From: an uncultured Candidatus Saccharibacteria bacterium
Lineage (GTDB): Bacteria; Patescibacteriota; Saccharimonadia; Saccharimonadales; JAGQNJ01
NCBI GenBank assembly: GCA_964510945.1
Contig: CAZEED010000006.1
Span: forward strand, 1 to 54,510
DNA length: 54,510 nucleotides
Direction of reading: 5' to 3'
Shown: piece after piece, positions 8,546 to 37,546 of the stretch
Position numbering within the stretch: the first letter of the stretch is position 1
How the letters are laid out: each line of letters starts with the position of its first letter
The notes under the pieces: model-generated
Databases searched by the model: none
Told to the model about the DNA's origin: nothing
What the model saw: the letters and a program-made list of their open reading frames with translations, nothing else
Made by a program: the position numbers and the translations under genes

Positions 8546-8616
8546 ATCTTTACCAAAACTGCACTATCGCAGTCGCTCTTACTCTTGTATCATAATAGTA
8601 TCAATTGTGAGGTTAT

Positions 8617-11767: not shown

Positions 11768-11974
11768 GTCTTTCTTTCCAGCTACATTATACCGCTAACG
11801 GCTGCAAAATCATAGTTACACTATGCTTATGCTTACATTGCAAATGCCTAAAACGCTTGTCAAAATTAGCCCCATAAAAATTCGGTATTTCATAGGTGGT
11901 ATCCCATATCTGGGAATAAAGGGGAAGTACCCCCCTGGCTATTTATGTAACGGTTATCAAGAATTATCTGTTTG

Positions 11975-12592: not shown

Positions 12593-12688
12593 TTCATTAC
12601 CTCTTCCTGATAGTGTTTACGGTCATTATGTACCTTTATCCACTTTATTCTGAGCCTCGCAAGGCTCAGTGGTAAAACAGATAACTTA

Positions 12689-23628: not shown

Positions 23629-24958
23629 CGATTAGTTTCCTTTTATCACCAGTTAAGTTTTCCCATCGCTTTAAAATCACTTCGGTATAAGTAGGGGACT
23701 TTTCAATCAAATAACAACGCCGTTTGAGCTTCGTTGCGGCGATTAATGTTGATCCAGAGCCTCCAAATGGTTCTATAACTAAATCATTCCTTTTTGTCAG
23801 CACCTTTAGGTAGGGAATAAGTATTTGAATAGGTTTGGTACCAAAAATTACACCTTGCCCAGAATGCATTTCATCACTGGCGTTAAACTCAATGAAATCT
23901 GTTGGCACATACTTACCACCTTTTTTATAGCCCTCCCATTGTGGCGAGCCTGAGGTGGCAAACAAGGCATTTTCGTATTGCTCCTGCAGTAATGCTTCCT
24001 CGTCTTTGGTATTAAGTGAAACATCCCCCGAAGTACCAACCATGGCAATATCGTGTTTTGAGAAAAACTTGTACTTGGCACTAAAGCCTTGGTGGCGATT
24101 GGGCAAGTGCCAGACTAACATATTACGAACCTTCCAGTATTTCTCCATCTCGCTCCAAATAGTGCGTAGGTTTTTCCAGTTCTCGTACACAATGATGGAG
24201 TAGTCAGCTTTGGCATGTTTGGCGACATTGCCCATCCATAGTTCGGTGAAGTTATCGGGCAGGGAATCGGTTTCGAGATACTTGCGGTTTTTCTTAGCGC
24301 CAAAGCCTTCGGTTGGTTTGCCACCACGCTTAGCGTGCAGATAGTCAAGAATGTAGGGCGGGTCAGTAAAGCACATATCTGCTTTCTGATCGCCCATGAG
24401 TTTATCGACGTCTTCAGCTATAGTGCTATCGCCACACAGCAAACGTGATTCACCCAGCTGATATACTTCACCTTTTTGAAGTTCAATTTTATCGATGCCT
24501 AGCTTGTTTAGTTCCTTCTTTAGACTAAACGTATCAGCTTCTTCTTCGTCTTCAATATCAAAAACCTCGTCTATTTCTTCGCTCGTAAACCCCACGTCAT
24601 CAAGTAAAGTCTCGTCAAATTCCTTGAGTAGAGTAAAATCCCAATCACCAAGGTTCTTATTTAACCGAAGATTTAACTCCTTCTCCTTATCAAGATCAGG
24701 TATATTAACGTACACAACCGGTACTTCGGTATATCCAAGATCTTTTGCAACGGCCACCCGAAAATGTCCGCCTATTATGATGTTTTCGCGACCTACTGCT
24801 TGGTTGCAGAGAATTGGGTCGACGAACCCATATCTCTTTATGCTCTCGGCAAGTTGTGCCTTTGCATCTTCGCTCCACTTACGTGGATTATACAAGCTCG
24901 CTTTTAGTTGATTTATTTTTACAGTTTTTATATTTAAGTTAGGCGTACTTATAGCCAT
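23597..24958 (-). CDS. ParB-like nuclease domain fused to a DNA methyltransferase (N4/N6, DPPY type)
   Basis: The N-terminal ParB-N-like segment (NPRKW...IIIGGHFRVAVAK) is followed by CFTDPPYILDY and a C-terminal EPFGGSGSTLIAA SAM-binding motif. The start is taken at ATG 24956-24958, preceded by AGGAGG; the ORF-track start is 25036. Confidence 0.85.
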   Translation of the reverse strand: MAISTPNLNIKTVKINQLKASLYNPRKWSEDAKAQLAESIKRYGFVDPILCNQAVGRENIIIGGHFRVAVAKDLGYTEVPVVYVNIPDLDKEKELNLRLNKNLGDWDFTLLKEFDETLLDDVGFTSEEIDEVFDIEDEEEADTFSLKKELNKLGIDKIELQKGEVYQLGESRLLCGDSTIAEDVDKLMGDQKADMCFTDPPYILDYLHAKRGGKPTEGFGAKKNRKYLETDSLPDNFTELWMGNVAKHAKADYSIIVYENWKNLRTIWSEMEKYWKVRNMLVWHLPNRHQGFSAKYKFFSKHDIAMVGTSGDVSLNTKDEEALLQEQYENALFATSGSPQWEGYKKGGKYVPTDFIEFNASDEMHSGQGVIFGTKPIQILIPYLKVLTKRNDLVIEPFGGSGSTLIAATKLKRRCYLIEKSPTYTEVILKRWENLTGDKRKLIDGPEHKKRQS

Positions 24959-25247
24959 AATGTTCCTCCTATTACTGGAGGTGGCCAACTTGAAGCAAAT
25001 AAAAATTCGCCCACGAGTTAACCACAATACCAGCAAAAATTAGATTTAATTTTTTGGCTATACGCCTTAGCGGTCAACTTCACGAAGCGCTTATATTTGC
25101 GTACTTATTCGCTAATTGATAATTACATTCAAGCACTAGTAGTTTTAACTGTCAAATCAGAGGTTAATCTAAAATGTACGAAAACGGGATTCTAGCCACT
25201 TTCTAGACATTTTTGGAACACGAAGGTACTATTTTACAACAATTAGA

Positions 25248-26393: not shown

Positions 26394-26954
26394 CTATTGT
26401 TTCTTAGAGTTCTTTTCAGCAGACCTCTTATATTCAGCATCTAGAACTTTGGATAGGTTGGGGTTATCTTTGCGAAGAATCATAAACGGGCCTTTAGGTA
26501 TGGGACGTGCTTTGATCTCACCGTTTCTTATGAGTTTACGAATCGTTTGCGTATGTAAGCCAGACTTCCACGAAAGGTCAGAATCAGTGATACATTTTTT
26601 GTGATCCCAATCCCCACATAGTGAACCCGGGATCTTCTTTTTATTGACCGCACCCTGACAATTCATGCACTTAAAGCCCCATTTGTCATACCAACCATCG
26701 CCTTCGTATACGCCGCGCCCACAAAGAGAGCAGTTGCGGCCTTTGCCCTCAAGGACGAATCCCTTTGGTTCAGTCTCCAATCGTTTCTTCAAGGCTTTTT
26801 GAGCCATATCCATTTCGATCAGTAAGTCCACAAAACTGACAAGATTATGCATGGACTCACGATATTCGGCCTCGGTTTCATACTTAATACCTTTGTCGTC
26901 GCATAGTTTCTTGAACTCGGTCATTTCTTTTTCGGATATGTCATGACTTCGCAT
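26394..26954 (-). CDS. hypothetical zinc-ribbon protein with C-terminal HTH-like segment
   Basis: 186 aa. CSLCGRG...CMNCQG. The N-terminal LVSFVDLLIEMD motif is shared with ORF 7047-7235. Confidence 0.4.
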   Translation of the reverse strand: MRSHDISEKEMTEFKKLCDDKGIKYETEAEYRESMHNLVSFVDLLIEMDMAQKALKKRLETEPKGFVLEGKGRNCSLCGRGVYEGDGWYDKWGFKCMNCQGAVNKKKIPGSLCGDWDHKKCITDSDLSWKSGLHTQTIRKLIRNGEIKARPIPKGPFMILRKDNPNLSKVLDAEYKRSAEKNSKKQ

Positions 26955-27005
26955 CCTCTTGGTCCTTTCGCTTCTTATCAGACAAAGTGTATATTAACAG
27001 TTCAC

Positions 27006-27034
27006 TTGCTAATAAGATTATTTTATGCTATAAA
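27006..27034 (+). promoter_or_regulatory. candidate sigma70-type promoter of the ten-gene operon
   Basis: TTGCTA (27006-27011), a 17-nt spacer and TATAAA (27029-27034), about 16 nt upstream of ATG 27051. Confidence 0.35.
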
Positions 27035-27050
27035 GATTAAAAGGAACTAA

Positions 27051-28316
27051 ATGTCACGTAGCCAAGAGACCCCGCCGGTTATTTCGGAAACTAACACCAA
27101 CAATCTAGTTGATGCTTACCGCTGCGCGAATGCTGACGTCTTGGCAGATCTTATTGTTGCTGAACATCCAGGATGGAATGAAAAAATTGACGACGTGTAC
27201 GTAGTATTGTGCGCATCTAGATCTGGATCTAGCCTCATCTTCAATGCCCTTGCCAGCACCGGAAAGGTAGCCGCGCCAGGTGGCGAACATGAGCCTTGGC
27301 TTACTTTGACGGAGAACAAATTTCCATTCTTGGATTCAGACGAATTAGTAGGGGAAATTAATAACAAAGACCTGCTTTTGAGCCTCGTCAGAAATGACCT
27401 ACTAGTAAGAGACCGTAAGCTGAACGCAAAAGATACACTTGACCCTCTTCGCAATCGGTTAGTAATACGTAGGCAAAGTGATCTTCCTGATTTTGGAAGA
27501 TTTATGACCAGCGTGCTAAACCGTGGGAATATACTCGGAACTGAGTGGGGTGAGGTTACTGAAGAAATTGGTCGTTTAGCGCTTAAGCCCATGCCAACTA
27601 AAACAGAACAATTCGGCAACCCAGAATTCAGTCTACCATTAGAGAACCCGCCACTTATTGAACAGCCACTGGCCCATCTAGCCACGGAAGATGAGCTGCA
27701 ACAACTACCACTGTTGTTTAAGTCCCCATCAGACGCATACCGTCCGGGATTTTATGAATCTCTGTTCCCTAATGCAAGGATTAACTACATCCATCTCTCA
27801 AGAGGATTTGTACAAACAACAAATGGACTGATGGATGGTTGGCAAATAGGCGAGACAGACTTTATATCTAACCCTGTGGGGGTTAAAAAACCCTTGGCAA
27901 TTGAGGACTACACTATTACAGAGATGTCAAGCATATACTGGTGTTTCGATCTTTTTAAGGGCTGGGAAGATTATACTGAAAGCAACTTGACTGAGGTGGC
28001 CGTTAATCAATGGCTCAGGGCGCACAAAAGCATCGTTGATAACTTCGAACCAATGGAAAGGCTAACATTTGAGCAATTCTACTCCAATCCACCCGAATTT
28101 TACGCCAGACTTTCACATCTCACAGGAATAGATACCACTGGCTACGATTGGGACAGATCTGTCATGAGCACCGAGACACCAAGCCAAAAAAGATGGCTTA
28201 AGCGTGCCAGTATGTTCCGAGATTTGAAAAGTTACCTGCCGGGAGCACTACTTGATGATGTGGTGCAGCTTCAAGACCATTTGGGCTACAGCATGGAGGA
28301 AGATACATGGCGTTAG
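27051..28316 (+). CDS. sulfotransferase-fold protein
   Basis: 421 aa. VVLCASRSGSSLIFNAL resembles the 5'-phosphosulfate-binding loop. KSPSDAYRPGFYESLFPNARINYIHLSRGFVQTTNG resembles the 3'-phosphate-binding segment of bacterial sulfotransferases. Confidence 0.65.
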   Translation: MSRSQETPPVISETNTNNLVDAYRCANADVLADLIVAEHPGWNEKIDDVYVVLCASRSGSSLIFNALASTGKVAAPGGEHEPWLTLTENKFPFLDSDELVGEINNKDLLLSLVRNDLLVRDRKLNAKDTLDPLRNRLVIRRQSDLPDFGRFMTSVLNRGNILGTEWGEVTEEIGRLALKPMPTKTEQFGNPEFSLPLENPPLIEQPLAHLATEDELQQLPLLFKSPSDAYRPGFYESLFPNARINYIHLSRGFVQTTNGLMDGWQIGETDFISNPVGVKKPLAIEDYTITEMSSIYWCFDLFKGWEDYTESNLTEVAVNQWLRAHKSIVDNFEPMERLTFEQFYSNPPEFYARLSHLTGIDTTGYDWDRSVMSTETPSQKRWLKRASMFRDLKSYLPGALLDDVVQLQDHLGYSMEEDTWR

Positions 28317-29164
28317 TAAACTATACAAATGAGTTCGGCATACTGATTAGAGTAGCACTCTACAAGCCTCGGCTTGATGAGATTTTTCAAGGTACACCTA
28401 ATGACGCCATGTACTCCTTAACACCAGAGGCAAAAAAAGTGATGTCTGAGGTAAGTAATGTGGCCGATGCATTTGCAGATTTAGGCGTGGAAGTTGTCTT
28501 GCTTGAAGACCCGGAACAATTGCACCCTCAAACCACTAACATGATTTTCCTGCGCGATGTTGCAGCGATAATAGATGACAAAATCATACTAGCAAATATG
28601 AAATATGACTTGAGGAAAGCCGAACCCCGCAAGTTCAAAAAATTACTCATGGACAAATGCAAAGTAAGTGAAGACGTTTTTGCTGAACTCGCTGATAATA
28701 TGACGATGGAAGGCGCAGATATCATTATTAGCAAGGAATCTGGGCTTCTTGTATACACAGGTTTTCGTACATCGACCGAAGCAATTGATGAGATTGCAAA
28801 CCAATTTCAATTCGATGTGAAGTCAATTTCAGCCAATATCCAAAAGGTACCACAACACTTACTTGGGGCGATGCATATCATTGGACCCGGTAAAATTGCA
28901 CGTCGTCCTAGGTATTGTAGTGCTGAAATTGATGGATTTGAATATATCGACTTCGATGAAACCGACGAAATAAAAAATAATTTTGCAATGAACATTGTGA
29001 CCATTGCTCCTAACGAAATTCTTATGCCATCTGATTGCCCCGAAACGAAAAATATTTTTGAGCAAAATGGGGTAAAATGTCACATTGTCGACATAAATGA
29101 AATACACAAAATGGGTGGCGGGCTAGCCTGTATGACTTTGCCTCTTGAAAGGGCTCAGCAATGA
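28307..29164 (+). CDS. amidinotransferase/DDAH/arginine-deiminase-fold (guanidino-group modifying) enzyme
   Basis: 285 aa. The C-terminal HKMGGGLACMTLPL carries the catalytic Cys signature of the superfamily. An internal MEGADII motif is also present. Confidence 0.7.
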   Translation: MALVNYTNEFGILIRVALYKPRLDEIFQGTPNDAMYSLTPEAKKVMSEVSNVADAFADLGVEVVLLEDPEQLHPQTTNMIFLRDVAAIIDDKIILANMKYDLRKAEPRKFKKLLMDKCKVSEDVFAELADNMTMEGADIIISKESGLLVYTGFRTSTEAIDEIANQFQFDVKSISANIQKVPQHLLGAMHIIGPGKIARRPRYCSAEIDGFEYIDFDETDEIKNNFAMNIVTIAPNEILMPSDCPETKNIFEQNGVKCHIVDINEIHKMGGGLACMTLPLERAQQ

Positions 29165-29925
29165 TACTAAAAAAATTATCCACAAAAACAGATTTCAGCC
29201 TTTGTGAAATTGGAGGCAAGGGCTATAACTTGCAAAAACTCATTGGCTGGGGCGTAAAGGTCCCCGAAACGCACATAATTCCTGCGGCCGAAATGCGAAT
29301 AATAAGCGATAAAGAAACCCCTTATAGTATTATATTCCCGAAGCAATTAAAGAAAAGTAATCTGAGGCTTGCAGTTCGGTCGTCAGGAATTGGTGAGGAC
29401 GGGAACGAAAATTCATTTGCGGGCATATTTGATACATTGCTTTATGTCAAGCCAGCAGAATTAAGTGAGGCAGTCCGCAAAGTTTACTCATCTAAAAACA
29501 CATCTGTTACCTCGATGTACAGCGACGCCAGAGGCGTTAAAGTTGTCGACATGGCAATTGTAGTACAGGAAATGATCGATGCCGATTTTGCAGGTGTGGC
29601 TTTTTCCGTAAACCCGATTGAGCAAGATCGAAGAGTGGGGCTTATAGAAATCGTTAGAGGCATAGGAGAAAGCCTCGTTTCGGGCAAAATCAAGCCGACT
29701 TCATTACGAATCAACCGCATTACTGGAATGCACAGAATACTGCAGGAAGGAACCGACGCGATAGAACAGAAACAACTCGAACAGATCATCACGCTAGTGA
29801 GCGAAGCATTGTGGCGCATAGACGATCTTTATGAAAAACCTGTCGACATCGAATGGGCGATAAAAAGTGGTGTGCTCTATCTACTGCAAGCTAGGCCAAT
29901 TACAACGCTAGGAGAATTGAAGTGA
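29161..29925 (+). CDS. PEP/pyruvate-binding (PPDK_N, ATP-grasp) domain protein; nucleotide-binding half of a split dikinase/phosphotransferase
   Basis: GGKGYNLQKL, AVRSSGIGEDGNENSFAG, MAIVVQEMIDADFAGVAFSVNP, GESLVSG and DIEWAIKSGVLYLLQARPIT match the PPDK_N signature blocks. Confidence 0.85.
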   Translation: MILKKLSTKTDFSLCEIGGKGYNLQKLIGWGVKVPETHIIPAAEMRIISDKETPYSIIFPKQLKKSNLRLAVRSSGIGEDGNENSFAGIFDTLLYVKPAELSEAVRKVYSSKNTSVTSMYSDARGVKVVDMAIVVQEMIDADFAGVAFSVNPIEQDRRVGLIEIVRGIGESLVSGKIKPTSLRINRITGMHRILQEGTDAIEQKQLEQIITLVSEALWRIDDLYEKPVDIEWAIKSGVLYLLQARPITTLGELK

Positions 29926-30497
29926 AGAATAGACTTATCGGTGTAACAGGAGTTACTGGAGTAGGTAAAGACTACCTGGTAACTGCGGCGAATGCAGATG
30001 CTAAGATAGGAACAAGGAACCTAGGAACATTAGTTGGTGAAGCACTCAAGATGGACCGAGATGCGATGATGCGAGCCGCCGAAGCCGACGAAATTCGCAC
30101 AGCACAACTAAAAGCATACTCAATTGTAGTCGCAGAACAACCCTTAGTTGTAACTTGCCATGCGATTCGTGAACTAGAACCAGGAAAGTTAGCCTATGAC
30201 GAAGAAATGGAAGATATGTTCAATCCGCAATCTTATGTTTTTGTAAAAGCACCGGCTGAACTGATAAAAGAACGAGTCCAAAAAAGAAACAACTCTGGTG
30301 AAAGAAAAAGTGTTGAATTTAGCGTGAACCAAATAGGTGAAGAGCAGGCCGCGAAATTAGAACTAACGCGTTCACTTGCAGACTATCTTTGTACTAGACT
30401 AATTGTTCTTGAAAATATTGACGAAGCATATGTCGGTAATGTTGCGATTCTCAGGAGTGAAATTAACATGGTCCTCGGTAATGGAGAAGAATTATGA
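29922..30497 (+). CDS. P-loop nucleotide/nucleoside-phosphate kinase-like protein
   Basis: 191 aa with a GTG start. Walker A-like GVTGVTGVGKDY. The size and layout are adenylate-kinase/APS-kinase-like. Confidence 0.55.
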   Translation: MKNRLIGVTGVTGVGKDYLVTAANADAKIGTRNLGTLVGEALKMDRDAMMRAAEADEIRTAQLKAYSIVVAEQPLVVTCHAIRELEPGKLAYDEEMEDMFNPQSYVFVKAPAELIKERVQKRNNSGERKSVEFSVNQIGEEQAAKLELTRSLADYLCTRLIVLENIDEAYVGNVAILRSEINMVLGNGEEL

Positions 30498-31228
30498 GAC
30501 GACAACCTAAAGTGATAACTATTTCTGCAGCAGGCAAAGGCGAACGGATGAAAGCCAGCATCGCCGAACTTGGGTTTCCTGAAGACACTCCCAAACCCTT
30601 GTTGCCTACCGGGAACAAGGAAACGCTCGTTGGCAGGATTACGCGCCAAGCTATGAAGATCGCCAATGTAGAGATCTATGCAAATTACGACACCATCAAA
30701 CCTATCGGCGAACATCCAGACACACCAAAAGATATCCAACTGCTGGTGAATCGAAATATATCCGGCCCTCTAGGACCGCTTTATCTAGACGTATTTAGAA
30801 GTGGTGACCAATCTATGATGGCAGCAGGAGATTTTTGGGCAGACTTCAAATGGTCTGATTTTCTTGCATTCCACGATACACAAAGTACACCGGTCTCAAT
30901 ATTAGTTGCCCCGAGTGTCCCAACGTACGAAGGTGCCCGGTTTAATGTTACCGACAATGGCATAGTTAAAAACTGGGAACGAGTAGAAAGAACAAGTAGT
31001 ACTGACCTTATAAATATCGGTGCATATATTGTTGACCCCGAAAAACTTGTTCTGCAGAAAATTCGAGAGATGACAACCCACAAAGAAGACCCGTTCAACG
31101 ATACGATGATCAACAGTGGCTTAATGTCTGCATATGTCCTTGATGAACCAGCATTCAATGTCAATAATGCCGAGATTTACAGAGCCATGGCCAGCTACTC
31201 TGCACATAAACCAAGGATTGAGCTGTAA
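30494..31228 (+). CDS. nucleotidyltransferase (NTP_transferase/MobA-like fold)
   Basis: 244 aa. The N-terminal ITISAAGKGERM matches the (L/I)xxAAGxGxRM signature of sugar-phosphate/phospho-substrate nucleotidyltransferases. Confidence 0.7.
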   Translation: MRRQPKVITISAAGKGERMKASIAELGFPEDTPKPLLPTGNKETLVGRITRQAMKIANVEIYANYDTIKPIGEHPDTPKDIQLLVNRNISGPLGPLYLDVFRSGDQSMMAAGDFWADFKWSDFLAFHDTQSTPVSILVAPSVPTYEGARFNVTDNGIVKNWERVERTSSTDLINIGAYIVDPEKLVLQKIREMTTHKEDPFNDTMINSGLMSAYVLDEPAFNVNNAEIYRAMASYSAHKPRIEL

Positions 31229-32703
31229 TGCTAAGCGCCGACACAATCTTTCCTCATGAAACTGAGCACTGGCGACGCATTAATATGCGCAAAGTTGCAC
31301 ATCTAGCAGGCGCCGAAAGCATACATAACCTCTATAATCGTCATTGGCCTAGGATAAATTCAATCAGGTTTAGACACACTCTCACGAACTACAAAGATGG
31401 CCGGGTTGAGTCCTTTGCACCCGTTAGTGAATGGCAATTCTTGCAGCACTGGCTTTCTAAGAAGTTTGTAATTTTAGACCCGGTTCTGATCAGAGAAATT
31501 GAAGCTATCTTAAACCCTACATACGACCTCATTGATGAGCTCATGGCTAGAATTGACGGCATTAACTTAAGCGAGCTATCCGACCAAGATCTAGCACTTA
31601 TATTTATCGACGTCATGGATTATCCAATGGGTGAAATATACAGACTAAACGTCGTACAGATAGAATACAGTCTAAACTATGCGTTACACTCAATCTTAGA
31701 AAAGTACGAATCCAGCCCAGAAGACAGAAACTTACTGCTTTCAAAATTGATTGCACCTGGAGAACTAACTGTTGCTCAAGAAGAAGAAGTTGAATTCTCT
31801 AAAATTATACGTAAGGCTCGCGGAATTGATGCTGCAAGCCCATACGACAACCAGGACATCCTGAAACTATTCTTGAAACATATTACTGTTTTTTCACCTA
31901 AGCACTGTGCATACGGAGAACTGCCTCCTTCTGAAGAAGATTATCTGAAGAAGTACCAAGACATGTTCACTAGTGGCAATAGCTTACTGTCTAACGCTCA
32001 AGCTATTAAAAATCTTGCAGAGCAGAGAGACGAGAGCGAGAGATTACTGTCAAAGATTAACGACCAAGGGCTCGCCCAATTATGTCGATTAATGGCACGT
32101 ATAGGAGTTTTTAGAGATAAAAACAAAGCAAAGCTCGGTGAGACTGTAGTGCGTAGATTGAAAATCATGGACGAAATTGCGTTAAGAACGGGCGTTCCGA
32201 GGAGTAACCTAGATTGGTATTTAATATCAGAGATCGTTACGCTTTTGGATACCGGCCAGCACCTCTCAAATTCCCATCTCAAGGCAAGACAAAAAGATGG
32301 CGTCAGATTTGAGAGATCAGAAGATGTAACATCTGGGGTAAGAGCCATCGAAAACAACGCTAGCAAAAACAGATCGAATATTAAGCACTTAAGCGGAATC
32401 TGTGCGTCAAGTGGCATTATTGAAGGCTCAGTAAAAGTCATATTCGATAAATCCGATAAGAAGAAAATGCGCACCGGAGACATTATGGTGGCCATAGGCA
32501 CAGATTTTGATCTGATCGAAATCATGAACCAGTCGGCAGGAATTATCACAGAAGAAGGTGGCTTGCTGTCACACGCCTCAGTTGTAAGTCGTGAGTTAAA
32601 TAAGCCCTGCTTGATCGGCGTAGAGGGCGCAACTTCAATCCTAAAAGATGGAGACAGAGTCACATTAGATGCAGTCAATGGTCATGTGGTGATAAAAAGA
32701 TGA
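31228..32703 (+). CDS. protein with C-terminal PEP-utilising mobile (phosphohistidine swivel) domain; second half of the split dikinase/phosphotransferase
   Basis: 491 aa. The C-terminal GIITEEGGLLSHASVVSRELNKPCLIGV matches the PEP-utilisers phosphohistidine signature. The N-terminal ~380 aa is unassigned and may bind substrate, by analogy with rifampin phosphotransferase. Confidence 0.8.
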   Translation: MLSADTIFPHETEHWRRINMRKVAHLAGAESIHNLYNRHWPRINSIRFRHTLTNYKDGRVESFAPVSEWQFLQHWLSKKFVILDPVLIREIEAILNPTYDLIDELMARIDGINLSELSDQDLALIFIDVMDYPMGEIYRLNVVQIEYSLNYALHSILEKYESSPEDRNLLLSKLIAPGELTVAQEEEVEFSKIIRKARGIDAASPYDNQDILKLFLKHITVFSPKHCAYGELPPSEEDYLKKYQDMFTSGNSLLSNAQAIKNLAEQRDESERLLSKINDQGLAQLCRLMARIGVFRDKNKAKLGETVVRRLKIMDEIALRTGVPRSNLDWYLISEIVTLLDTGQHLSNSHLKARQKDGVRFERSEDVTSGVRAIENNASKNRSNIKHLSGICASSGIIEGSVKVIFDKSDKKKMRTGDIMVAIGTDFDLIEIMNQSAGIITEEGGLLSHASVVSRELNKPCLIGVEGATSILKDGDRVTLDAVNGHVVIKR

Positions 32704-33212
32704 TTAGCATAGATCTATATCGAAGAGCTGTGATTCAAAATTATAGAGGTAAGACACTTATCAAAGATTTTGACAAGATTTTTAATGCTCAAAATAGTGA
32801 CAACGAAGTGAGTTGTTTTTATATAGACAGAAAACAGACCGGACTACTGTTCTTGCTGAGTGAAGACGACTATTACGTGACTAAAATATCTAAGTCCTCG
32901 GTTACAGCCGATAAATCCGGCAGGATAAAACCTATTATCTGTGATCTTTGCTATACACGAATGCCCGGATCTAAAATTGCTAAAGTCACCGCAGTAAGAA
33001 AGACCGATTCACATAGTTTTACGTGGTTAATATGTAACAATCTTGATTGCAGTCTGCATTCAAGAGAGAAAACTACTGAGTCAGAGGATTCAAAGAAGAT
33101 TTTGGGAGAAAATATCACTATAGACCGGAGGATTAGACGTCTCGAAAAACACATCAAGAATATTGTTAGCACGCTGCAACTACAACCCTTAAATGGAGGT
33201 TCGCATGAGTAA
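32700..33212 (+). CDS. treble-clef zinc-finger protein (FBP/FusB C-terminal-domain-like)
   Basis: 170 aa. The ICDLCYT...(about 25 aa)...LICNNLDCS spacing resembles the FusB/FBP C-terminal zinc finger. Motif-level call only. Confidence 0.35.
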   Translation: MISIDLYRRAVIQNYRGKTLIKDFDKIFNAQNSDNEVSCFYIDRKQTGLLFLLSEDDYYVTKISKSSVTADKSGRIKPIICDLCYTRMPGSKIAKVTAVRKTDSHSFTWLICNNLDCSLHSREKTTESEDSKKILGENITIDRRIRRLEKHIKNIVSTLQLQPLNGGSHE

Positions 33213-34062
33213 TAATTATAACCAATTAACGAATCTAATCTCAACTGGCGAGGTTAATCTAGTTCATGTCGAATCAGTTCCACGCTCCGTTTCAACAGCC
33301 CTGGCACGATCCCTGAGCGAATCAGACACTCCCAGCATATACGTAAACGAGCCATTTAATAGAATGCGCCACGATATTGAAGATGCCTCAGGTCGAATCC
33401 TTGACGCTATGAAGGGGTCCGGTCGCGACACTGAAACGCCGCTAACGATTATTTCAAAAAATATGGCAAGGAACATTTCTCAATCAATATTTAATGAGCT
33501 AGTTGAGCTTTCGACTGGAATCGTCTGGTCGGTAAGAGATCCACGAATACAGATAAGTTCACTACTTACTCGGATTGCAAACGACTTAGCATATGAACCG
33601 GGCGCGGACATGTTTACAATGGATGAGCTCACAGATGAGCAGATTCAGGACGCTAGTAATTTTCTGGAAAATGGGCCAAAATCAACAAACTTTTCGAAGA
33701 CAAGCTGGGAATATATCGGTCGTCACTTCACGTCGTTGGGCAAATCCGCCGTTTCAATCGTTATTGATGGCTCAACATTGACAAAATACCCTGAACCCAC
33801 GCTAAAAACTGCCGCAGGAATTTTGGGGTTGGAATATTCTGACCGAATGATAAATGGATGGCAGGGAGAATTCATTAATGCCAACACCGGTTACAACCCG
33901 AACTTAACTGACGATACACACGCCTGGACAAAAGATGCAGTTATTAGCACTGGTATAAAGCCTTCATCCGATCGTATGATTGACATCGACAGAATGCCAT
34001 CTAGCCTACAGGCACATCTCACAGAAATAGCTATACCTACATATCAACGAATGGTGGGTTAA
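33205..34062 (+). CDS. second sulfotransferase-fold-like protein
   Basis: VHVESVPRSVSTALARSL (PSB-loop-like) and WSVRDPRIQISSLLTR (3'-PB-like). The start is taken at ATG 33205, preceded by GGAGG; the ORF-track start is 33193. Confidence 0.5.
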   Translation: MSNNYNQLTNLISTGEVNLVHVESVPRSVSTALARSLSESDTPSIYVNEPFNRMRHDIEDASGRILDAMKGSGRDTETPLTIISKNMARNISQSIFNELVELSTGIVWSVRDPRIQISSLLTRIANDLAYEPGADMFTMDELTDEQIQDASNFLENGPKSTNFSKTSWEYIGRHFTSLGKSAVSIVIDGSTLTKYPEPTLKTAAGILGLEYSDRMINGWQGEFINANTGYNPNLTDDTHAWTKDAVISTGIKPSSDRMIDIDRMPSSLQAHLTEIAIPTYQRMVG

Positions 34063-34063
34063 T

Positions 34064-34678
34064 GTGGTTGAAGCGCTAATTTTTGACTACGGTGGAGTCG
34101 TCAGTGATGGCGGTCGCGATTTCGAACCTGCAATGAGACTCGCGAGCAACCTTGCAATTGGTCAAAGCTGTGCAATACAACTAATATCGGAACCATGGGA
34201 TCAACTATCGAAGGGATTTATCGATGTTGATGAGTTCTGGTCACAGATTGAGAATGCATTAGGCAGTGAAGTAGACGACACCCTCAGGGACATATGGAAC
34301 ACATTTGATAATTGTATGTATCCTCGTAAACAAATACAGGTAACGTTGATGAACCTCAAAACCTCTGGTTATATCCTTGGACTACTGTCTGATACTGTTC
34401 CGCCGACAGCACAGTCGATTAGACTTGGTGGCGGATATCATCCGTTTGATTTTACGATATTGTCGTGTGAGGTTGGCCTCAGAAAGCCAGATGAGAAAAT
34501 ATATAACGTTGCTCTTTCAAAAATACCAGATATAAGCCCCCACAATGTAGTCTATATCGACGATAATCCAAAAAATCTAGTCCCAGCCCGGAAACTTGGT
34601 ATGCAGACAATACTAGCAGGAAATTCCAAAGATCTGAGTATTGAGATTATTAACATAATGTCAAACAAAGCTGTTTAA
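34064..34678 (+). CDS. HAD-superfamily hydrolase/phosphatase
   Basis: Motif I LIFDYGGVV, motif II LLSDT and motif IV VYIDDNPKN. GTG start. Confidence 0.8.
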   Translation: MVEALIFDYGGVVSDGGRDFEPAMRLASNLAIGQSCAIQLISEPWDQLSKGFIDVDEFWSQIENALGSEVDDTLRDIWNTFDNCMYPRKQIQVTLMNLKTSGYILGLLSDTVPPTAQSIRLGGGYHPFDFTILSCEVGLRKPDEKIYNVALSKIPDISPHNVVYIDDNPKNLVPARKLGMQTILAGNSKDLSIEIINIMSNKAV

Positions 34679-34696
34679 ATCTGTTACAGTATTTAT

Positions 34697-35104
34697 ATGT
34701 CAGAATCAACTCAACTCTGCCCATTTTGCATCGAGAACAATTTGCTACGAGTCAGTGTGCTCTACCAAGATGACTTATGGTACATAACCGATATGGAAGA
34801 AGGTAGTATTAATAACGCCGTCATGGCAATCACCAAGCGACATATAGAGACACCATTCGAAATCAATGACCAAGAATGGAGGGAACTGCACAGCCTTTTA
34901 GACAGAATGAAAAAGCTAGTCGATCAAAAGGAACAACCGAAAGGGTACAATCTAGGTTGGAACATACATCAAACCGGCGGTCAAAACGTAGCACACGCCC
35001 ACTTACATTTGCTTGGTCGCTATGAAGACGAACCGCTTGCTGGTAAAGGCATTAGACACGCTTTTAAGCAGCTCGATAATTCAAGACCTAGCCAGCAGGG
35101 CTGA
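34697..35104 (+). CDS. HIT-family (histidine triad) nucleotide hydrolase/transferase
   Basis: 135 aa. NVAHAHLHLLGR is the histidine triad HxHxHxx. An N-terminal CPFC is also present. Confidence 0.85.
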   Translation: MSESTQLCPFCIENNLLRVSVLYQDDLWYITDMEEGSINNAVMAITKRHIETPFEINDQEWRELHSLLDRMKKLVDQKEQPKGYNLGWNIHQTGGQNVAHAHLHLLGRYEDEPLAGKGIRHAFKQLDNSRPSQQG

Positions 35105-35218
35105 GTTGATATTAGCAGGATGATTAACTTTTATTCGATATAGAGATAATTGGTGGGTATATTTGTTTTGTTTTAATTACCAGACCATCAAACACCTCCT
35201 TTATCCAATAAAAATGGA

Positions 35219-35312
35219 ACACTTCTGAATATGCGCGTTTGGTGTCTCATTTGTCCCATTTTCAGTACCATACCCCTGTTAAGGGTTCCGTGACCTGTAT
35301 GGGGAGCCAAGA
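35219..35312 (+). repeat. att-like direct repeat, copy B
   Basis: See copy A. It has the same orientation and the 28-bp perfect core at 35285-35312. It lies immediately downstream of the last operon gene. Confidence 0.7.
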
Positions 35313-35427
35313 GTATATATTTTACATAGGACCCAGTAAGCGTCCACGCTGCTGGATTTTTATACATGACTTTACTCACAGTCGCAGAGCCAAAGTGGTA
35401 TATACTGGAGTAGGAGTATGGTAAGTT

Positions 35428-35967
35428 ATGCCGAAATTTGTTAAGCCAAAGAATAGCGATGTCATATGTATACAATTTCATTGTAGCGAATGTAAAAAAC
35501 AATTTATTACGACTATTGACGACTTTTCAAAGTCTTTTGTGTGTTCAAGATGCAAGGCAATCGTAAATACTCTACCGATTTTCTGCCAATACGAAGGATG
35601 CCCTGGACGTTATAGTTATTTCAGGTGTGGCGGGACCATTAAAAGGCTTACTGACCAAGAAAGATTAGCAGAGGAACGAAAAATTCTTAGTTCAGAGCCA
35701 GATATATCTGTAGGGTCAAGACCAACCGATTCTTTTCATGACGAAATGGGCGACATACAAGCTTCGGTCATAACATATAAGTGTGAAAAATGCGGGGACA
35801 GTTATTCACTCCAAGAAGCCAGTAGAAAAGGTGTCGATTCAGGCAATGCTAAATGCCAACGCATAGTGTGTGACACTTGTGGGCGTTATCCTGTGGTAGA
35901 TGGACTACCTGAGCCAGACGAAGGTGCTGACAATAATCCGCTGACGCGATTTTATTTTAATTACTAA
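35428..35967 (+). CDS. hypothetical multi-zinc-ribbon protein
   Basis: 179 aa. CSECKK...CSRCKA, then CEKCGD...CDTCGR. Confidence 0.45.
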   Translation: MPKFVKPKNSDVICIQFHCSECKKQFITTIDDFSKSFVCSRCKAIVNTLPIFCQYEGCPGRYSYFRCGGTIKRLTDQERLAEERKILSSEPDISVGSRPTDSFHDEMGDIQASVITYKCEKCGDSYSLQEASRKGVDSGNAKCQRIVCDTCGRYPVVDGLPEPDEGADNNPLTRFYFNY

Positions 35968-35970
35968 CTA

Positions 35971-36405
35971 CTACCAACTGGACTCATAATTATAAACTTG
36001 CAATGAGTCGCTACCTTTTTCTAATTCTGATTCGAGCACATCTATCGTGTAGTTTATGTTATGGAAATAATTATTATCGTAATCAGTGCTCCCGAATAAA
36101 AATCCTCCTTGTGTTGGCAGTAACTCTGGAGCTTTTTTAGAATCTTTTTTAACCTGATAACAAAGTTCAAGAAGATTCCTGAGTTGTTCAGTGTGTACTT
36201 CATATACTCTGCAATCATCCTCTGAATTCTGGACGTTATTTACAAACCATTTGTGTATTGCGTTGGCTTTTCTCCAGTAAGCTATATCCTCAACTACAAG
36301 CTTTACCCTGCTGATATCTACTTGGCTTTTTATGCCAGCAATTATTAATTTGTTGTCCTTGCTGCCAACATATGTTTTCTTCGTTAGATACATATCTAAG
36401 CTCAT
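35971..36405 (-). CDS. hypothetical protein
   Basis: 144-aa ORF with an AGAGG RBS upstream. No recognisable motif. Confidence 0.45.
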   Translation of the reverse strand: MSLDMYLTKKTYVGSKDNKLIIAGIKSQVDISRVKLVVEDIAYWRKANAIHKWFVNNVQNSEDDCRVYEVHTEQLRNLLELCYQVKKDSKKAPELLPTQGGFLFGSTDYDNNYFHNINYTIDVLESELEKGSDSLQVYNYESSW

Positions 36406-36475
36406 TTTTTAACCTCTAAACAATGTAATATTCTAACTAAATGTTGAATGTTATATCCATATAATAACACCTATT

Positions 36476-36500
36476 GGTTCATGACCTGTATGCTGAGCCA
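36476..36500 (+). repeat. att-like motif, degenerate fourth copy
   Basis: ggttcatgacctgtatgctgagcca compares with the core ggttccgtgacctgtatggggagcca: about 22 of 26 positions match, with one indel. Same orientation. Confidence 0.4.
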
Positions 36501-36507
36501 TACAAAG

Positions 36508-36535
36508 ACGGTCCTCGTTTGAGGGCCGTTTTTGT
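36508..36535 (+). terminator. rho-independent terminator-like hairpin
   Basis: The 9-bp stem acggtcctc/gagggccgt (one G-U pair) has a gttt loop and is followed by ttttgt. No plus-strand CDS lies within about 500 nt upstream. Confidence 0.5.
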
Positions 36536-36794
36536 ATCTTTCTGGGTCGGTCTGGGAACAAGGCAACCCAGCAGCTTTAGCTGCTGATAGGTTGTCGAGT
36601 TCGGTCGTTAGTCACAGGCCCCAGCGTTAGCGGGCGCCTGGATTAACGTGCGTTTGTCCGACCACATTCTGCGGTCCCGAAACTTACTTGATTGAAAACA
36701 AGTTTTCATCAGAAGGTTTCCTTGCGAATTGCCAAAGGCAATTCTCACCCAGGAGCCAAGCATAAGCATTTCAAATGTACGGTATACTAAAAGT

Positions 36795-37144: not shown

Positions 37145-37546
37145 ATGATAGTGAAAGCAGCATTATTACTTTTCCGTAATAATCACGGTGCTAAAGAACT
37201 GATGTTTGTGCAACCGCACGACAAGCCTTACTACGTTTTTCCTGGAGGTAAGCAAGAAGATAGCGAGACCATTGAACAGGCGCTTGTGAGAGAAATCCAG
37301 GAAGAGCTGTCGGCGGGCATCGAGAACACTAAAGAAATAGGTGTAGTCACCGGCCAAACACCTGACGGACGAGAACTAGAGATGCATTTATTCACAGCAG
37401 ATCTTCTTAACGAGCCCCGTGCAGCTTCTGAGATAGCTAACATTTACTGGCTTGACAATTCATCCGCGCATGAACATAAGAGCATGATGACACCAATGAC
37501 CCTAGACCATGTTATGCCTTTCTTAAGCAAAAACGGTATTTGGTAG
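37145..37546 (+). CDS. NUDIX hydrolase
   Basis: Nudix box GGKQEDSETIEQALVREIQEELS (Gx5Ex7REUxEExGU). TATACT lies 6 nt upstream of the ATG. Confidence 0.85.
   Translation: MIVKAALLLFRNNHGAKELMFVQPHDKPYYVFPGGKQEDSETIEQALVREIQEELSAGIENTKEIGVVTGQTPDGRELEMHLFTADLLNEPRAASEIANIYWLDNSSAHEHKSMMTPMTLDHVMPFLSKNGIW

Follow-up and report, generated by a model that had tools for sequence, protein, structure and literature searches.

Organization of the ten-gene operon

The window, i.e. the whole stretch of 54,510 nucleotides that was analysed, derives from a Saccharimonadales (CPR) bacterium, one of the very small, symbiotic Saccharibacteria. Positions 27051-35104 hold ten, mostly overlapping, open reading frames on the + strand (g1 to g10). 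From g1 to g10, the distances at the junctions are -10, -4, -4, -4, -1, -4, -20, +1 and +18 nt, with overlaps of the ATGA, GTGA and TAATG types, and the start of g2 lies inside the end of g1 (10 nt overlap). All open reading frames and overlaps of the coupled operon proposed in an earlier sequence-only reading are thus present, and its domain calls were confirmed for all ten genes by profiles or structure models. The operon is located in a flexible, recombinase-rich stretch adjoining defence genes, which agrees with the mobile setting suggested before. No membrane or glycosyltransferase component is encoded within the ten genes.

Upstream of g1, and on the same strand, a promoter-like site is formed by TTGCTA (27006-27011) and TATAAA (27029-27034), which are separated by a 17-nt spacer with a TGn motif just before the -10 hexamer. 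It is followed by a ribosome-binding site, AAAGGAAC, at 27040-27047. The promoter described earlier is present as a sequence, but a consensus scan of the region returned promoter-like matches at chance level (30 versus 23.9 +/- 5.6 in shuffled sequences). A promoter at this position is therefore only plausible.

Two sulfotransferase folds and a DDAH-like partner

g1 (27051..28316) encodes a protein of 421 aa with an SRSGSS loop at residue 56, an HLSRG motif at residue 248 and an NGLMDGW motif. Although g1 alone remained below the Pfam thresholds, its confident AlphaFold model (pLDDT 89.7) retrieved PAPS sulfotransferases as the top 19 PDB matches in Foldseek, the top folds being the CurM and OLS sulfotransferases, Stf1, Stf0 and TPST. 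The family profile likewise picks up the CurM and OLS enzymes, and the alignments include both PAPS motifs. Across 21 sequences drawn from six kinds of genome, 40 positions carry the same residue in 20 or more; g1 forms a distinct, deeply conserved sulfotransferase-fold family. The second such protein, g8 (33193..34062), consists of 289 aa, or 285 aa if translated from the ATG at 33205, and carries PRSVST at residue 30 and VRDPRIQISS at residue 114. g8 alone was also below the Pfam thresholds, but 15 of 33 relatives match Pfam Sulfotransfer_5, and the top 41 PDB matches of its model (pLDDT 90.7) are PAPS sulfotransferases. The two sulfotransferase folds read from the sequence are borne out, and both proteins also retain the 5'-phosphosulfate (PSB) loop together with the Arg motif for the 3'-phosphate. 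No g8 relatives were confirmed in the viral collection, and a two-motif scan returned none.

The product of g2 (28307..29164; 285 aa) is a hydrolase of the DDAH/arginine-deiminase superfamily (Pfam ADI, 3e-18; DDAH_eukar, 5e-16), and NCBIfam dimethylargininase models cover its full length. D84, R103, E135, D138, R154, H184 and C275 are invariant. Cys275 is the nucleophile in GGGLACMT, and in the alignment R103 and R154 fall on the R..E and RT motifs found in arginine deiminase. Like arginine deiminase and DDAH, g2 has the catalytic Cys, His and Asp as well as the two Arg residues that bind the carboxylate. We propose that g2 would convert an N-omega-substituted arginine to citrulline and a substituted amine.

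A gene for a guanidino-processing enzyme is always found beside g1. The g1-g2 pair is contiguous wherever it occurs: a DDAH-like gene adjoins g1 in 7 cellular and 13 viral loci, the pair being present in 13/13 of the latter. In Betaproteobacteria, the g1 orthologue lies beside an arginase-family gene (3/3 loci), and in haloarchaea it belongs to a three-gene cluster on megaplasmids (3/3 loci) with a YqcI/YcgG gene and an APS-kinase/nucleotidyltransferase fusion. The YqcI/YcgG family hydroxylates guanidine N-H (PMC12866846), and the member in the haloarchaeal clusters is of the arginine N-hydroxylase or guanidine hydroxylase family. DDAH-type and arginase-type partners would yield different products, an amine versus a urea derivative, and the common purpose of the pairing is therefore not obvious. 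The viral pairs have thymidylate-synthase-like genes and kinases as neighbours, joined in two loci by an amino-acid:DNA transferase; these phage clusters resemble DNA-modification clusters. No match to g3, g5 or g6 was found in the fetched viral loci.

Because g2 tracks g1, and not the kinase and nucleotidyltransferase, and because g1 orthologues have arginase or YqcI/YcgG genes at their side, arginine is more likely to be the acceptor of g1 than a substrate of the dikinase. The proposed role of g1 would accordingly be to move an activated group onto an arginine-type guanidino group. This speaks against the earlier placement of the guanidino hydrolase within the kinase pathway, and an order of steps in which the dikinase N-phosphorylates arginine is not favoured.

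A split dikinase and its nucleotidyltransferase

g3 (29161..29925; 254 aa) is the separate ATP-grasp nucleotide-binding domain of a dikinase of the PEP-synthase/rifampin-phosphotransferase type (Pfam PPDK_N, 1.8e-45), with PEP synthase and Listeria rifampin phosphotransferase as its best PDB matches. g6 (31228..32703; 491 aa) starts with a substrate-binding domain specific to the family (residues 1 to ~370) and continues with a phosphohistidine swivel domain (Pfam PEP-utilizers, 1.9e-21), in which the motif GGLLSHASVVSRE contains His449 (nt 32572-32574). Sequence features indicate that g3 and g6 jointly are a split dikinase. In the loci L031-L034, g3 is joined to the C-terminal end of g6, and the resulting single polypeptide of ~755 aa occurs in MAGs of Bacteroidota, Myxococcota and Firmicutes. 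Among 1.84 billion cluster representatives, only 97 are related to the N-terminal domain of g6. His449 and 75 further columns (76 in total) are invariant across 21 sequences that are 41-76% identical to the g6 of the window. Since this alignment mixes core-only and full cluster types, the invariant columns argue for one substrate, X, in both.

g5 (30494..31228; 244 aa) is a nucleotidyltransferase with the AAGKGERM signature, whose profile aligns with GDP-mannose pyrophosphorylase across the entire catalytic domain (6.5e-18) and thus indicates the sugar-phosphate nucleotidyltransferase fold. Its proposed reaction would be NTP + X-phosphate -> NDP-X + PPi.

The P-loop kinase g4 (29922..30497; 191 aa; GVTGVGKD) has a nucleoside-monophosphate-kinase fold, and its family profile aligns from end to end with archaeal adenylate kinases (1.8e-10). 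An assignment as APS kinase is disfavoured, the nearest relatives being adenylate kinases of the archaeal type. g4 is also weakly similar to the phage kinase F2 located before g1 (hhalign E = 2e-4), and both match phrog_761. The role of g4 is ambiguous: it may act as a 3'-kinase on the nucleotide donor or as a recycling kinase for nucleoside monophosphates. In L014, L031 and L033, which have g1 and g2, no g4 or APS kinase was detectable within 10 kb. This, together with the adenylate-kinase-like nature of g4, means that 3'-phosphorylation may not take place, or may depend on a gene at another site. A variant CPR cluster, L097, has in place of g4 and g5 a HIGH-motif nucleotidyltransferase fused to a true APS-kinase domain (Pfam, 1.2e-23); the haloarchaeal fusion beside g1 orthologues has the swapped domain order and is 41-43% identical to that of L097. 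The nucleotidylation and 3'-phosphorylation foreseen earlier thus gain from the L097 fusion, but not from g4 itself.

Core and accessory genes

The complete ten-gene order is intact in L037 (g6 77% identical) and is retained without g9 in L016 (62% identity), showing that the gene set is co-conserved, in support of the sequence-only reading. The core consists of g3 and g6 with g5, which nearly every locus with a full-length g6 also contains. The kinase never stands by itself in the manner of PEP synthase or rifampin phosphotransferase. This core occurs in Saccharibacteria, other Patescibacteria and one DPANN archaeon (an Aenigmatarchaeota MAG), and is far commoner than g2. At some loci, in several lineages, an NMT1-type ABC importer is nested in it.

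Two further genes often accompany the core. g7 (32700..33212; 170 aa) encodes a treble-clef zinc finger homologous to the FusB/FusC C-terminal domain (Pfam FBP_C, 3.6e-9; profile matches to FusB and FusC at ~6e-9), with Cys81, Cys84, Cys112 and Cys117 invariant in 17 sequences of 24% mean identity. Most loci with a full-length g6 also have g7, Firmicutes and Mollicutes MAGs included. The HIT protein g10 (34697..35104; 135 aa; HAHLHLL at residue 100; Pfam HIT, 2.3e-10) matches NCBIfam models of purine nucleoside phosphoramidase and ATP adenylyltransferase (~5e-6). It is present in many full-length g6 loci and recurs in those of Saccharibacteria; among core-only relatives, its gene immediately precedes the one for the ATP-grasp protein. 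The add-ons are g1 with g2, g4, g8 and g9. The last of these (34064..34678; 204 aa) is a HAD-IA phosphatase (Pfam HAD_2, 9e-11; TIGR02247, 1.6e-19) that is also found in L037, L014 and L031; it possibly strips the spent nucleotide of its 3'-phosphate or dephosphorylates a product.

A tentative two-module pathway

The operon appears to encode a pathway that builds a nucleotide-activated group and delivers it via the two sulfotransferase-like enzymes. Our reading, which we hold tentatively and rate somewhat short of an even chance, is that two modules have been joined into one pathway for a PAPS-like group donor. What the analysis shows is how the proteins fold, which catalytic motifs they carry, and that the genes are coupled and co-occur; all substrates, the 3'-phosphorylation and the question of which module feeds the other are inferred. 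In module 1 (g3 and g6, g5, with g7 and g10), phospho-His449 would hand the beta-phosphate of ATP to the small substrate X held in the unique N-terminal domain of g6, and g5 would convert X-phosphate and NTP to NDP-X; the NMT1-type transporter probably takes up X in relatives. In module 2 (g4, g1 and g2, g8 and g9), a P-loop kinase (g4 here, the APS-kinase fusion in L097) would ready the donor, probably by 3'-phosphorylation. g1 would then transfer the terminal activated group to an arginine-type amino acid, at a nitrogen of the guanidino group, and g2 would hydrolyse the N-substituted arginine to citrulline and an aminated product. Arginine would thus serve as masked ammonia, and the product would be an N-P or N-S compound, e.g. 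a phosphoramidate or sulfamate. g8 may pass the group of a similar donor to a second acceptor, while nucleotide by-products might be recycled or edited by g9 and g10. The model assigns g7 and g10 no defined role, though g7 often accompanies g6 and g10 recurs in the loci of Saccharibacteria.

Candidates for the carried group are phosphoramidate, phosphoryl-X and sulfate. The donor of the g1 orthologues could simply be PAPS: phages, Betaproteobacteria and haloarchaea carry these orthologues without the dikinase, and that the two modules of the operon work together is concluded solely from co-transcription and co-conservation. The general logic of a PAPS-like donor is supported by the folds and motifs of g1 and g8 and the APS-kinase fusions of L097 and the haloarchaea.

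Comparison with known systems

No published description of such a pathway was found, in line with the earlier view that the gene set is not a described cluster. For the proposed succession of kinase, nucleotidylation and 3'-phosphate in the operon, a precedent is provided by Cj1415-Cj1418, which convert glutamine, ATP and CTP to CDP-phosphoramidate 3'-phosphate (PMC11800397).

Organization of the operon

The operon at 27051-35104 comprises ten forward-strand genes, g1 to g10, all of which had been proposed in a sequence-only reading and were found at the same positions in our ORF list. In order, they encode a sulfotransferase-fold protein (g1, 27051-28316), an ADI/DDAH-type protein (g2, 28307-29164), the PPDK_N-containing ATP-grasp half of a split dikinase (g3, 29161-29925), an adenylate-kinase-like P-loop kinase (g4, 29922-30497), a nucleotidyltransferase (g5, 30494-31228), the other half of the dikinase with a PEP-utilizers swivel domain (g6, 31228-32703), a zinc-finger protein matching FBP_C (g7, 32700-33212), a second sulfotransferase-fold protein (g8, 33193-34062), a HAD protein (g9, 34064-34678) and a HIT protein (g10, 34697-35104). 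The gaps between successive genes are -10, -4, -4, -4, -1, -4, -20, +1 and +18 nt. The promoter suggested earlier is present as a motif on the same strand (27006-27034), namely TTGCTA and TATAAA separated by a 17-nt spacer; TATAAA is extended by TGn, and a ribosome-binding site follows. However, matches to this type of consensus were not enriched in the operon region.

The domain assignments made previously for g2, g3, g6, g7, g9 and g10 were confirmed by profile searches. The family profile of g4 matched archaeal-type adenylate kinases over its full length (1.8e-10), and APS kinase was rejected on this basis as an identity for g4. For g5, the match of the family profile to sugar-phosphate nucleotidyltransferases extended over their entire catalytic domain (6.5e-18), and both the G-x-G-x-R signature and the nucleotidyltransferase fold are present. 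In the swivel domain of g6, His449 is invariant. Four cysteines are invariant in the g7 family, whose similarity to FusB and FusC lies in their C-terminal domain.

Genomic setting

A protein identical to g6 of the window is encoded on at least 23 metagenome contigs. Between the window and eight contigs (L001-L008; L numbers designate the fetched related loci), the block 26457-36663 is 98.7-99.98% identical, whereas the flanking core genes of the same strains are just 97.2-97.7% identical. This difference suggests that the block may have been exchanged recently between strains. To its left, the contigs carry alternatively Thoeris with a type I RM system, a type IIG RM enzyme with a ParB-methyltransferase, or a Pif1 helicase with a DUF2779 protein, and the genes on the right also vary. 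In the window, a NUDIX hydrolase (37145-37546) and an APH-family kinase (37935-38894) are encoded in the variable DNA on the right, where L001-L004 have other genes. Two further genes lie within the constant block, one for a 179-aa protein with many CxxC pairs and several zinc-ribbon-like units (35428-35967, forward strand), and one for a 144-aa protein without a family match (35971-36405, reverse strand); both are missing from the related loci L037 and L016.

The left half of the window contains an FtsK/SpoIIIE translocase, two large serine recombinases, a ThsB-type TIR protein, a 1116-aa PLD/SNF2 helicase followed by a 1024-aa type IIG RM enzyme, and a fusion of ParB-N with an N6-N4 DNA methyltransferase. 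These genes occupy positions 467-1924, 3825-5345 (-), 11078-11767 (-), 15463-16737 (-), 16818-23242 and 23597-25036 (-), and taken together they resemble a stack of integrative elements and defence genes. A related serine recombinase is found beside the cluster in L014 and L022. The recombinases and the variable defence flanks therefore place the operon in flexible, recombinase-rich DNA next to defence genes, which agrees with the mobile-island setting proposed earlier. The additional view that the operon is the cargo of a variable island was accepted only in part, because the block 26457-36663 is constant between strains and it is the two flanks that vary.

Two sulfotransferase-fold proteins with intact predicted nucleotide sites

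Taken alone, g1 and g8 both score below the Pfam thresholds. Alignment-based AlphaFold models of the two proteins (pLDDT 89.7 for g1 and 90.7 for g8) nevertheless bore out the sulfotransferase folds that had been read from their motifs, as the best PDB matches, namely the top 19 for g1 and the top 41 for g8, are PAPS-dependent sulfotransferases. The best fold matches of g1 are CurM, OLS, Stf1, Stf0 and TPST. In profile comparisons, the SRSGSS loop and the HLxR motif of g1 align with the PAPS-binding motifs of the CurM/OLS sulfotransferases, and the residues R57, G59, S60 and R251 of SR-x-GSS and HL-x-R are identical in 21 of 21 sequences. g8 has a PRS-x-ST motif, with R115 and S123 conserved in at least 90% of the sequences, and 15 of its 33 relatives reach Pfam Sulfotransfer_5. 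The alignments and models show that both proteins keep intact putative sites for a 3',5'-bisphosphorylated nucleotide. A paralogous relationship between g1 and g8 was considered and rejected, since they share no detectable similarity.

Across the six settings in which g1 was found, 40 positions are identical in at least 20 of the 21 sequences, including both nucleotide-binding motifs and the sequence NGLMDGW. Because of this conservation, the g1 family looks like a single predicted enzyme activity. No ATP sulfurylase was detected in the operon or among the genes of the window.

A conserved core of split dikinase and nucleotidyltransferase

Searches with phmmer and iterated profiles in all fetched loci showed that nearly every full-length g6 locus also contains g3 and g5. 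The sequence-only reading had named a kinase encoded alone as an observation that would speak against it, and this is not what was found, as g5 accompanies the kinase in nearly all of these loci. By profile, g7 is present in most full-length loci, including those of Firmicutes and Mollicutes MAGs. A HIT gene is found in the Saccharibacteria set and usually overlaps the start of the ATP-grasp gene, and g4 adjoins g5 in L018 and L036. In L031-L034, g6 and then g3 are fused into one protein of about 755 aa. The family of the g6 N-terminal domain is small, with 97 clusters among 1.84 billion representatives, and includes split and fused forms.

Full-length relatives of g6 were found in Saccharibacteria, in other Patescibacteria (Zambryskiibacteriota, Paceibacterota and UBA2103), in one Aenigmatarchaeota MAG and in a few MAGs of Bacteroidota, Myxococcota, Firmicutes and Mollicutes. 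The closest genome locus belongs to a Saccharimonadales MAG, with a g6 that is 77% identical. A tblastn search with the g6 N-terminal domain gave no matches in plasmids, and a nucleotide search with the 8-kb operon gave none in phage and plasmid collections. In an alignment that mixes core-only with full clusters, 76 columns of g6 are invariant. This argues for one and the same predicted dikinase substrate in both types of cluster.

An ABC importer is nested within the core in L011, L012, L096 and L020, where it lies between the core genes g6, g7 and g3 (L011 10001-14367; L096 8001-12363; L020 9264-15278). Its binding protein matches NMT1 (NMT1/THI5), Phosphonate-bd and OpuAC, which hints that the substrate of the kinase could be an imported small polar molecule. 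In L013, from a CPR genome of 881 kb, a HIT gene, the ATP-grasp gene, g5, g6 and g7 (8127-12050) are located between secY and infA, a site that is usually occupied by adk and map. This core is thus situated within the ribosomal protein gene cluster, in housekeeping surroundings.

Add-on genes in cellular relatives

The remaining genes of the operon are distributed differently from the core. g1 and g2 are adjacent or close to each other in the window, L014, L016, L021/L097, L037, L031 (a Prolixibacteraceae locus) and L033 (a Myxococcales locus), and g8 and g9 recur inside the Saccharibacteria subset. The gene-neighbourhood comparison that had been suggested showed that the complete order from g1 to g10 recurs in L037, and that L016 retains this order without g9. 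The Prolixibacteraceae locus additionally encodes two radical-SAM enzymes, one of which is B12-dependent, and a TylF-type O-methyltransferase.

g4 is missing from L014, L031 and L033. In L097, both g4 and g5 are missing and are replaced by a 262-aa fusion protein (11867-12655), which combines a HIGH-motif nucleotidyltransferase domain (GRWQPFHQGH) with an APS-kinase domain (Pfam 1.2e-23). Among the CPR clusters, only this variant has an APS-kinase domain.

The arrangement in L014 (6719-8248; g6 57% identical) has an ATP-grasp gene flanked by two HIT genes, with a g1-g2 pair and a g8-g5 pair on the opposite strand. Just upstream of g1-g2, about 0.7 kb from g2, this locus carries genes for a ParB-methyltransferase and a serine recombinase as well as a terminase-like ORF.

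g1 and its partners outside CPR

It was the g1 family outside CPR that changed our reading of the operon. In Betaproteobacteria, relatives of g1 are 32-34% identical across the full length. A conserved trio of genes, for an MTS/PrmA-type methyltransferase, a g1 orthologue and an arginase-family protein in this order, was found in Roseateles amylovorans, in Janthinobacterium sp. HH01 and on one metagenome contig (L098 9319-12060; L099 9312-12078; L104 3319-6060); g1 overlaps the start of the arginase-family gene. The two named organisms are cultured hosts in which the activity of g1 could be tested. Each of the three haloarchaeal megaplasmids that we inspected carries a g1 relative (25-28% identical), a gene annotated as cysC and then a YqcI/YcgG gene (L100 6004-9101; L101 5884-8983; L102 5884-8994). 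The 'cysC' product consists of an APS kinase and a HIGH-motif nucleotidyltransferase, and it corresponds to the L097 fusion with the domains swapped (41-43% identity). Members of the YqcI/YcgG family hydroxylate a guanidine N-H of free arginine (PMC12866846).

The viral set comprised 13 loci, namely one 162-kb myovirus contig and twelve IMG/VR contigs (29-43% GC). g1 is followed by a g2 homologue in all 13; the two genes are directly adjacent in 11 and separated by two small genes in the other 2. These g2 homologues are 29-39% identical to g2 of the window. A P-loop kinase of about 170 aa, here termed F2, is encoded directly upstream of g1 in 11/13 loci, thymidylate-synthase-like genes are present in 10/13 (often in two copies), an APH-like kinase in 9/13 and a guanylate-kinase-like gene in 5/13. 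In L118 and L119, a gene for a Pfam ADDT protein (amino acid:DNA transferase; 1.5e-15) lies directly beside g1-g2, and genes for ribonucleotide reductase and DnaB are found near the viral pairs. The module is located at 7849-12788 in L105 and near position 8000 in L109-L120, in phages of up to 188 kb. The gene order in L109 and L112 is guanylate-kinase-like, a protein of about 200 aa, the 170-aa P-loop kinase, g1-like, g2-like, thymidylate-synthase-like, APH-like kinase and a second thymidylate-synthase-like gene. The viral module may be an undescribed DNA hypermodification pathway that uses arginine, and the g1-g2 pair flags phage clusters that may encode a new DNA modification.

No match to g3, g5 or g6 was found in the fetched viral loci. 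In the viral collection, the g6 family gave short swivel-domain matches only, and no relative of g8 was confirmed there. Between g4 and the phage kinase F2, a possible counterpart, the similarity is weak (hhalign probability 44%, E = 2e-4); F2 itself has no significant relative in the PDB.

The constant companion of g1 is therefore a guanidino-processing enzyme, of one of three unrelated folds, and usually there is also a kinase of the P-loop or APS type. By its size and best full-length matches, g2 is DDAH-like. It keeps the Cys/His/Asp catalytic set, and in alignments two of its arginines coincide with the R..E and RT motifs by which arginine deiminase binds the carboxylate. Because both features are kept, the substrate of g2 is probably an arginine-type amino acid. 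A sulfotransferase-fold protein with a guanidino-hydrolase partner is thus common to CPR, large phages, Betaproteobacteria and haloarchaea, and this wide sharing points to a general, undescribed use of arginine in group-transfer chemistry.

A proposed pathway and its alternatives

We tentatively favour a scheme in which arginine is used at the g1 step and the dikinase route provides a PAPS-like donor. We regard this scheme as plausible, albeit somewhat more apt to fail than to hold. In it, g3 and g6 would phosphorylate a small substrate, X, with conversion of ATP to AMP and Pi; in relatives, X would probably be imported. g5 would then convert the product to NDP-X, and a kinase would prepare the donor, this being g4 in the operon and the APS-kinase fusion in L097. 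g1 would move the activated terminal group onto a guanidino nitrogen of arginine, from which g2 would free citrulline and an aminated product of the phosphoramidate or sulfamate type. g8 would serve a second acceptor, and the HAD protein g9 and the HIT protein g10 would recycle or edit nucleotides. Arginine is placed at the g1 step because g2 follows g1 into genomes without the dikinase, because most dikinase cores lack g2, and because the importer within the core is not of the amino-acid type.

This scheme has several weak points. g4 falls outside the APS-kinase family and is not present in three of the loci with g1 and g2 (L014, L031 and L033). In other organisms, g1 could simply use PAPS as its donor, and partners of the DDAH and arginase types would yield different products. 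Furthermore, g7 and g10 recur with the core, yet beyond nucleotide recycling or editing by HIT the scheme gives them no role there. A broader interpretation, which we consider possible but doubtful, is that g1 and g2, usually together with a small P-loop kinase, form a new module in which the guanidino nitrogen of arginine would serve as masked ammonia for building N-P, N-S or N-C bonds from a substrate of the 3'-phosphonucleotide type; the CPR dikinase route would supply a new PAPS-like cofactor, and phages would use the g1-g2 pair for an undescribed DNA hypermodification.

A rival explanation is hypermodification of nucleotides or nucleic acid in the host itself. According to this explanation, a P-loop kinase, g1 and g2 would act, as in the phage clusters, on a modified nucleotide, DNA or RNA, so that host nucleic acid is marked. 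For example, arginine might be attached to an activated hydroxymethyl-pyrimidine and trimmed to an amine, with the g1 fold binding an in-chain 3',5'-phosphorylated nucleotide. The company of the viral g1-g2 pairs, that is F2, thymidylate-synthase-like genes, other kinases and, in two loci, ADDT, resembles phage thymidine hypermodification, in which a hydroxymethylase works together with a P-loop 5-hmdU DNA kinase and an amino-acid:DNA transferase (PMC8989533), and the operon adjoins RM and ParB-methyltransferase genes in a flexible region. However, the operon and its flanks encode no hydroxymethylase, glycosylase-like transferase or DNA-binding enzyme, and neither a hydroxymethylase nor a 5-hmdU DNA kinase nor an amino-acid:DNA transferase was found in the window ORFs scanned; genes of these kinds accompany g1-g2 in viral loci only. 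The viral matches to g6 are confined to the swivel domain and g8 has no confirmed viral counterpart, the core of L013 lies among housekeeping genes, and the APS-kinase domains of L097 and the haloarchaea point to a ribonucleotide donor. We view hypermodification of host nucleic acid as unlikely.

The exact scheme put forward in the sequence-only reading appears quite improbable to us, although its underlying logic of a PAPS analogue is kept in the scheme that we favour. There, the dikinase would N-phosphorylate arginine or another guanidino compound and g5 would make NDP-arginine, after which g2 would free a nucleoside diphosphoramidate and citrulline, g4 would 3'-phosphorylate the former, and g1 and g8 would transfer phosphoramidate. 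This logic matches Cj1418, Cj1416, Cj1417 and Cj1415 of Campylobacter jejuni part for part. N-omega-substituted arginines are substrates of DDAH enzymes, g2 has retained the residues for binding the amino-acid moiety, nucleoside phosphoramidases are found among HIT enzymes, and the TylF-type O-methyltransferase of L031 recalls O-methyl phosphoramidate. Against this, g2 tracks g1 and not the kinase and nucleotidyltransferase, as seen in the 13 viral pairs without g3, g5 or g6 and in the many cores without g2. Several cores carry an importer of the NMT1/phosphonate/OpuAC type instead of an amino-acid type, and g4 is not a member of the APS-kinase family. Arginine is therefore not favoured as the kinase substrate.

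Handling of a xenobiotic or antibiotic, linked to translation, with a kinase like rifampin phosphotransferase inactivating an imported compound and the FusB/FusC-like g7 protecting or recruiting EF-G, is very unlikely. It would accommodate the Listeria rifampin phosphotransferase as one of the closest solved relatives of g3 and g6, the homology of g7 to the EF-G-binding C-terminal domain of FusB/FusC, and the location of the L013 core inside the ribosomal protein gene cluster. However, the likeness to rifampin phosphotransferase is confined to the ATP-grasp and swivel regions while the substrate domain is unrelated, g7 lacks the FusB N-terminal domain, and the near-constant nucleotidyltransferase, the two sulfotransferase folds and the DDAH-like enzyme would be left unexplained. 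An anti-phage function, either chemical or through depletion or modification of nucleotides on a defence island, is suggested by the variable neighbours (Thoeris, type I and type IIG RM, PLD/SNF2 helicase), the elevated identity of the block (99.5-99.98%) between strains with flanking core genes at just 97.2-97.7% and the serine recombinases beside the cluster in L014 and L022, but it is extremely improbable, as PADLOC recognised no known defence system in the operon and gave only weak isolated matches (HIT to ThsC, 6.5e-9; g4 to VakA, 3e-4), core-only versions occupy conserved chromosomal surroundings, and there is no effector-like nuclease, NADase or pore-forming protein.

Comparison with known systems

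The closest parallel to the favoured scheme is the Cj1415-Cj1418 pathway of C. jejuni, which produces CDP-phosphoramidate 3'-phosphate from glutamine, ATP and CTP (PMC11800397). The pathway and the scheme alike begin with a phosphohistidine kinase of the PPDK/PEP-synthase type and a nucleotidyltransferase, include a hydrolase for the release of a nitrogen-bearing group from its amino-acid carrier, and employ a P-loop kinase on the way to a PAPS-like donor. A three-domain phosphohistidine kinase of this type is found here in two genes, and fused in L031-L034, but its substrate domain belongs to a small separate family. The hydrolase of the operon has the DDAH/ADI fold instead of the glutamine-amidotransferase fold and tracks g1, not the kinase; profile searches identified it as the sole such hydrolase in the operon, with no GATase-type gene like Cj1417. 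g4 is adenylate-kinase-like and not APS-kinase-like, and the recurring zinc finger and HIT proteins set the operon further apart, judging by descriptions of the Cj proteins. A literature search retrieved no publication in which the transferases Cj1421 and Cj1422 and the word 'sulfotransferase' all occur. Since two of the four defining parts are missing, namely the GATase-type hydrolase and the APS-kinase-family kinase, the operon would work like the Campylobacter donor pathway but is not a member of it.

Sulfate activation and PAPS-dependent transfer share with the operon the fold and both nucleotide-binding motifs of g1 and g8, and variant clusters contain a genuine APS-kinase domain. Nevertheless, the operon has a dikinase and a sugar-phosphate-type nucleotidyltransferase in place of ATP sulfurylase, and the g1 proteins, about 410 aa long and with large insertions, constitute a separate family that is tied to guanidino enzymes. 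With phaseolotoxin biosynthesis (Pht) in Pseudomonas syringae, the operon shares types of parts by description: the PPDK-like PhtL, which is proposed to form an N-P bond, the sulfotransferase-like PhtA, the adenylylsulfate kinase PhtS, the HAD protein PhtP and AmtA of the guanidino-modifying superfamily. However, the phaseolotoxin amidinotransferase makes homoarginine, and the peptide ligases, desaturases, resistance gene argK and tripeptide toxin are particular to that system; the operon has no ligases and no argK, and no nucleotidyltransferase, zinc finger or HIT gene has been reported for phaseolotoxin.

Rifampin phosphotransferase and PEP synthase likewise combine an ATP-grasp with a swivelling phosphohistidine domain, and phenylphosphate synthase is also split into subunits. 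Yet only the ATP-grasp and swivel regions of the first two align with g3 and g6, their substrate-binding domain being unrelated, and g3 and g6 do not stand alone but are accompanied nearly always by g5 and in most loci by g7. The CPR operon differs from phage thymidine hypermodification in lacking the hydroxymethylase and the transferase. Neither of two papers on that subject (PMC8989533, PMC5889632) mentions 'sulfotransferase' or 'arginine'; 'dimethylarginine' and 'amidinotransferase' are absent from the former and 'deiminase' from the latter. In the LicA/LicC phosphocholine and C. difficile FtaA-D CDP-threonine pathways, a small molecule is also phosphorylated, nucleotidylated and transferred as a phospho-group, but by ordinary kinases and TagF- or LicD-type phosphotransferases, and without a dikinase or enzymes of the sulfotransferase fold. 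Only two CDP-amino acids, CDP-glutamine and CDP-threonine, are known, and such compounds are very rare. Finally, g7 resembles FusB-type fusidic-acid resistance proteins in its treble-clef C-terminal domain and four zinc-binding cysteines, whereas with its 170 aa it lacks their N-terminal helical domain, aligns to FusB residues 67-204 only, and is encoded beside g6 in most full-length loci.

The earlier impression that the gene set does not correspond to a described cluster is in line with our literature searches (Saccharibacteria with sulfotransferase, PEP synthase and HIT; sulfotransferase with arginase and methyltransferase), which found no published description of it. CPR organisms have very small genomes and their biochemistry is mostly unknown. 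To our knowledge, no PAPS-type group donor is known besides PAPS itself and the Campylobacter CDP-amidate 3'-phosphate. A third such donor, with enzymes of another set and a wide distribution in CPR, would, if true, add a new cofactor-like metabolite. The proteins of the operon are all small and soluble and lend themselves to expression and assay. Set against the known systems, we rate the operon as a predicted nucleotide-activated group-donor pathway, a known kind of pathway in a new form.
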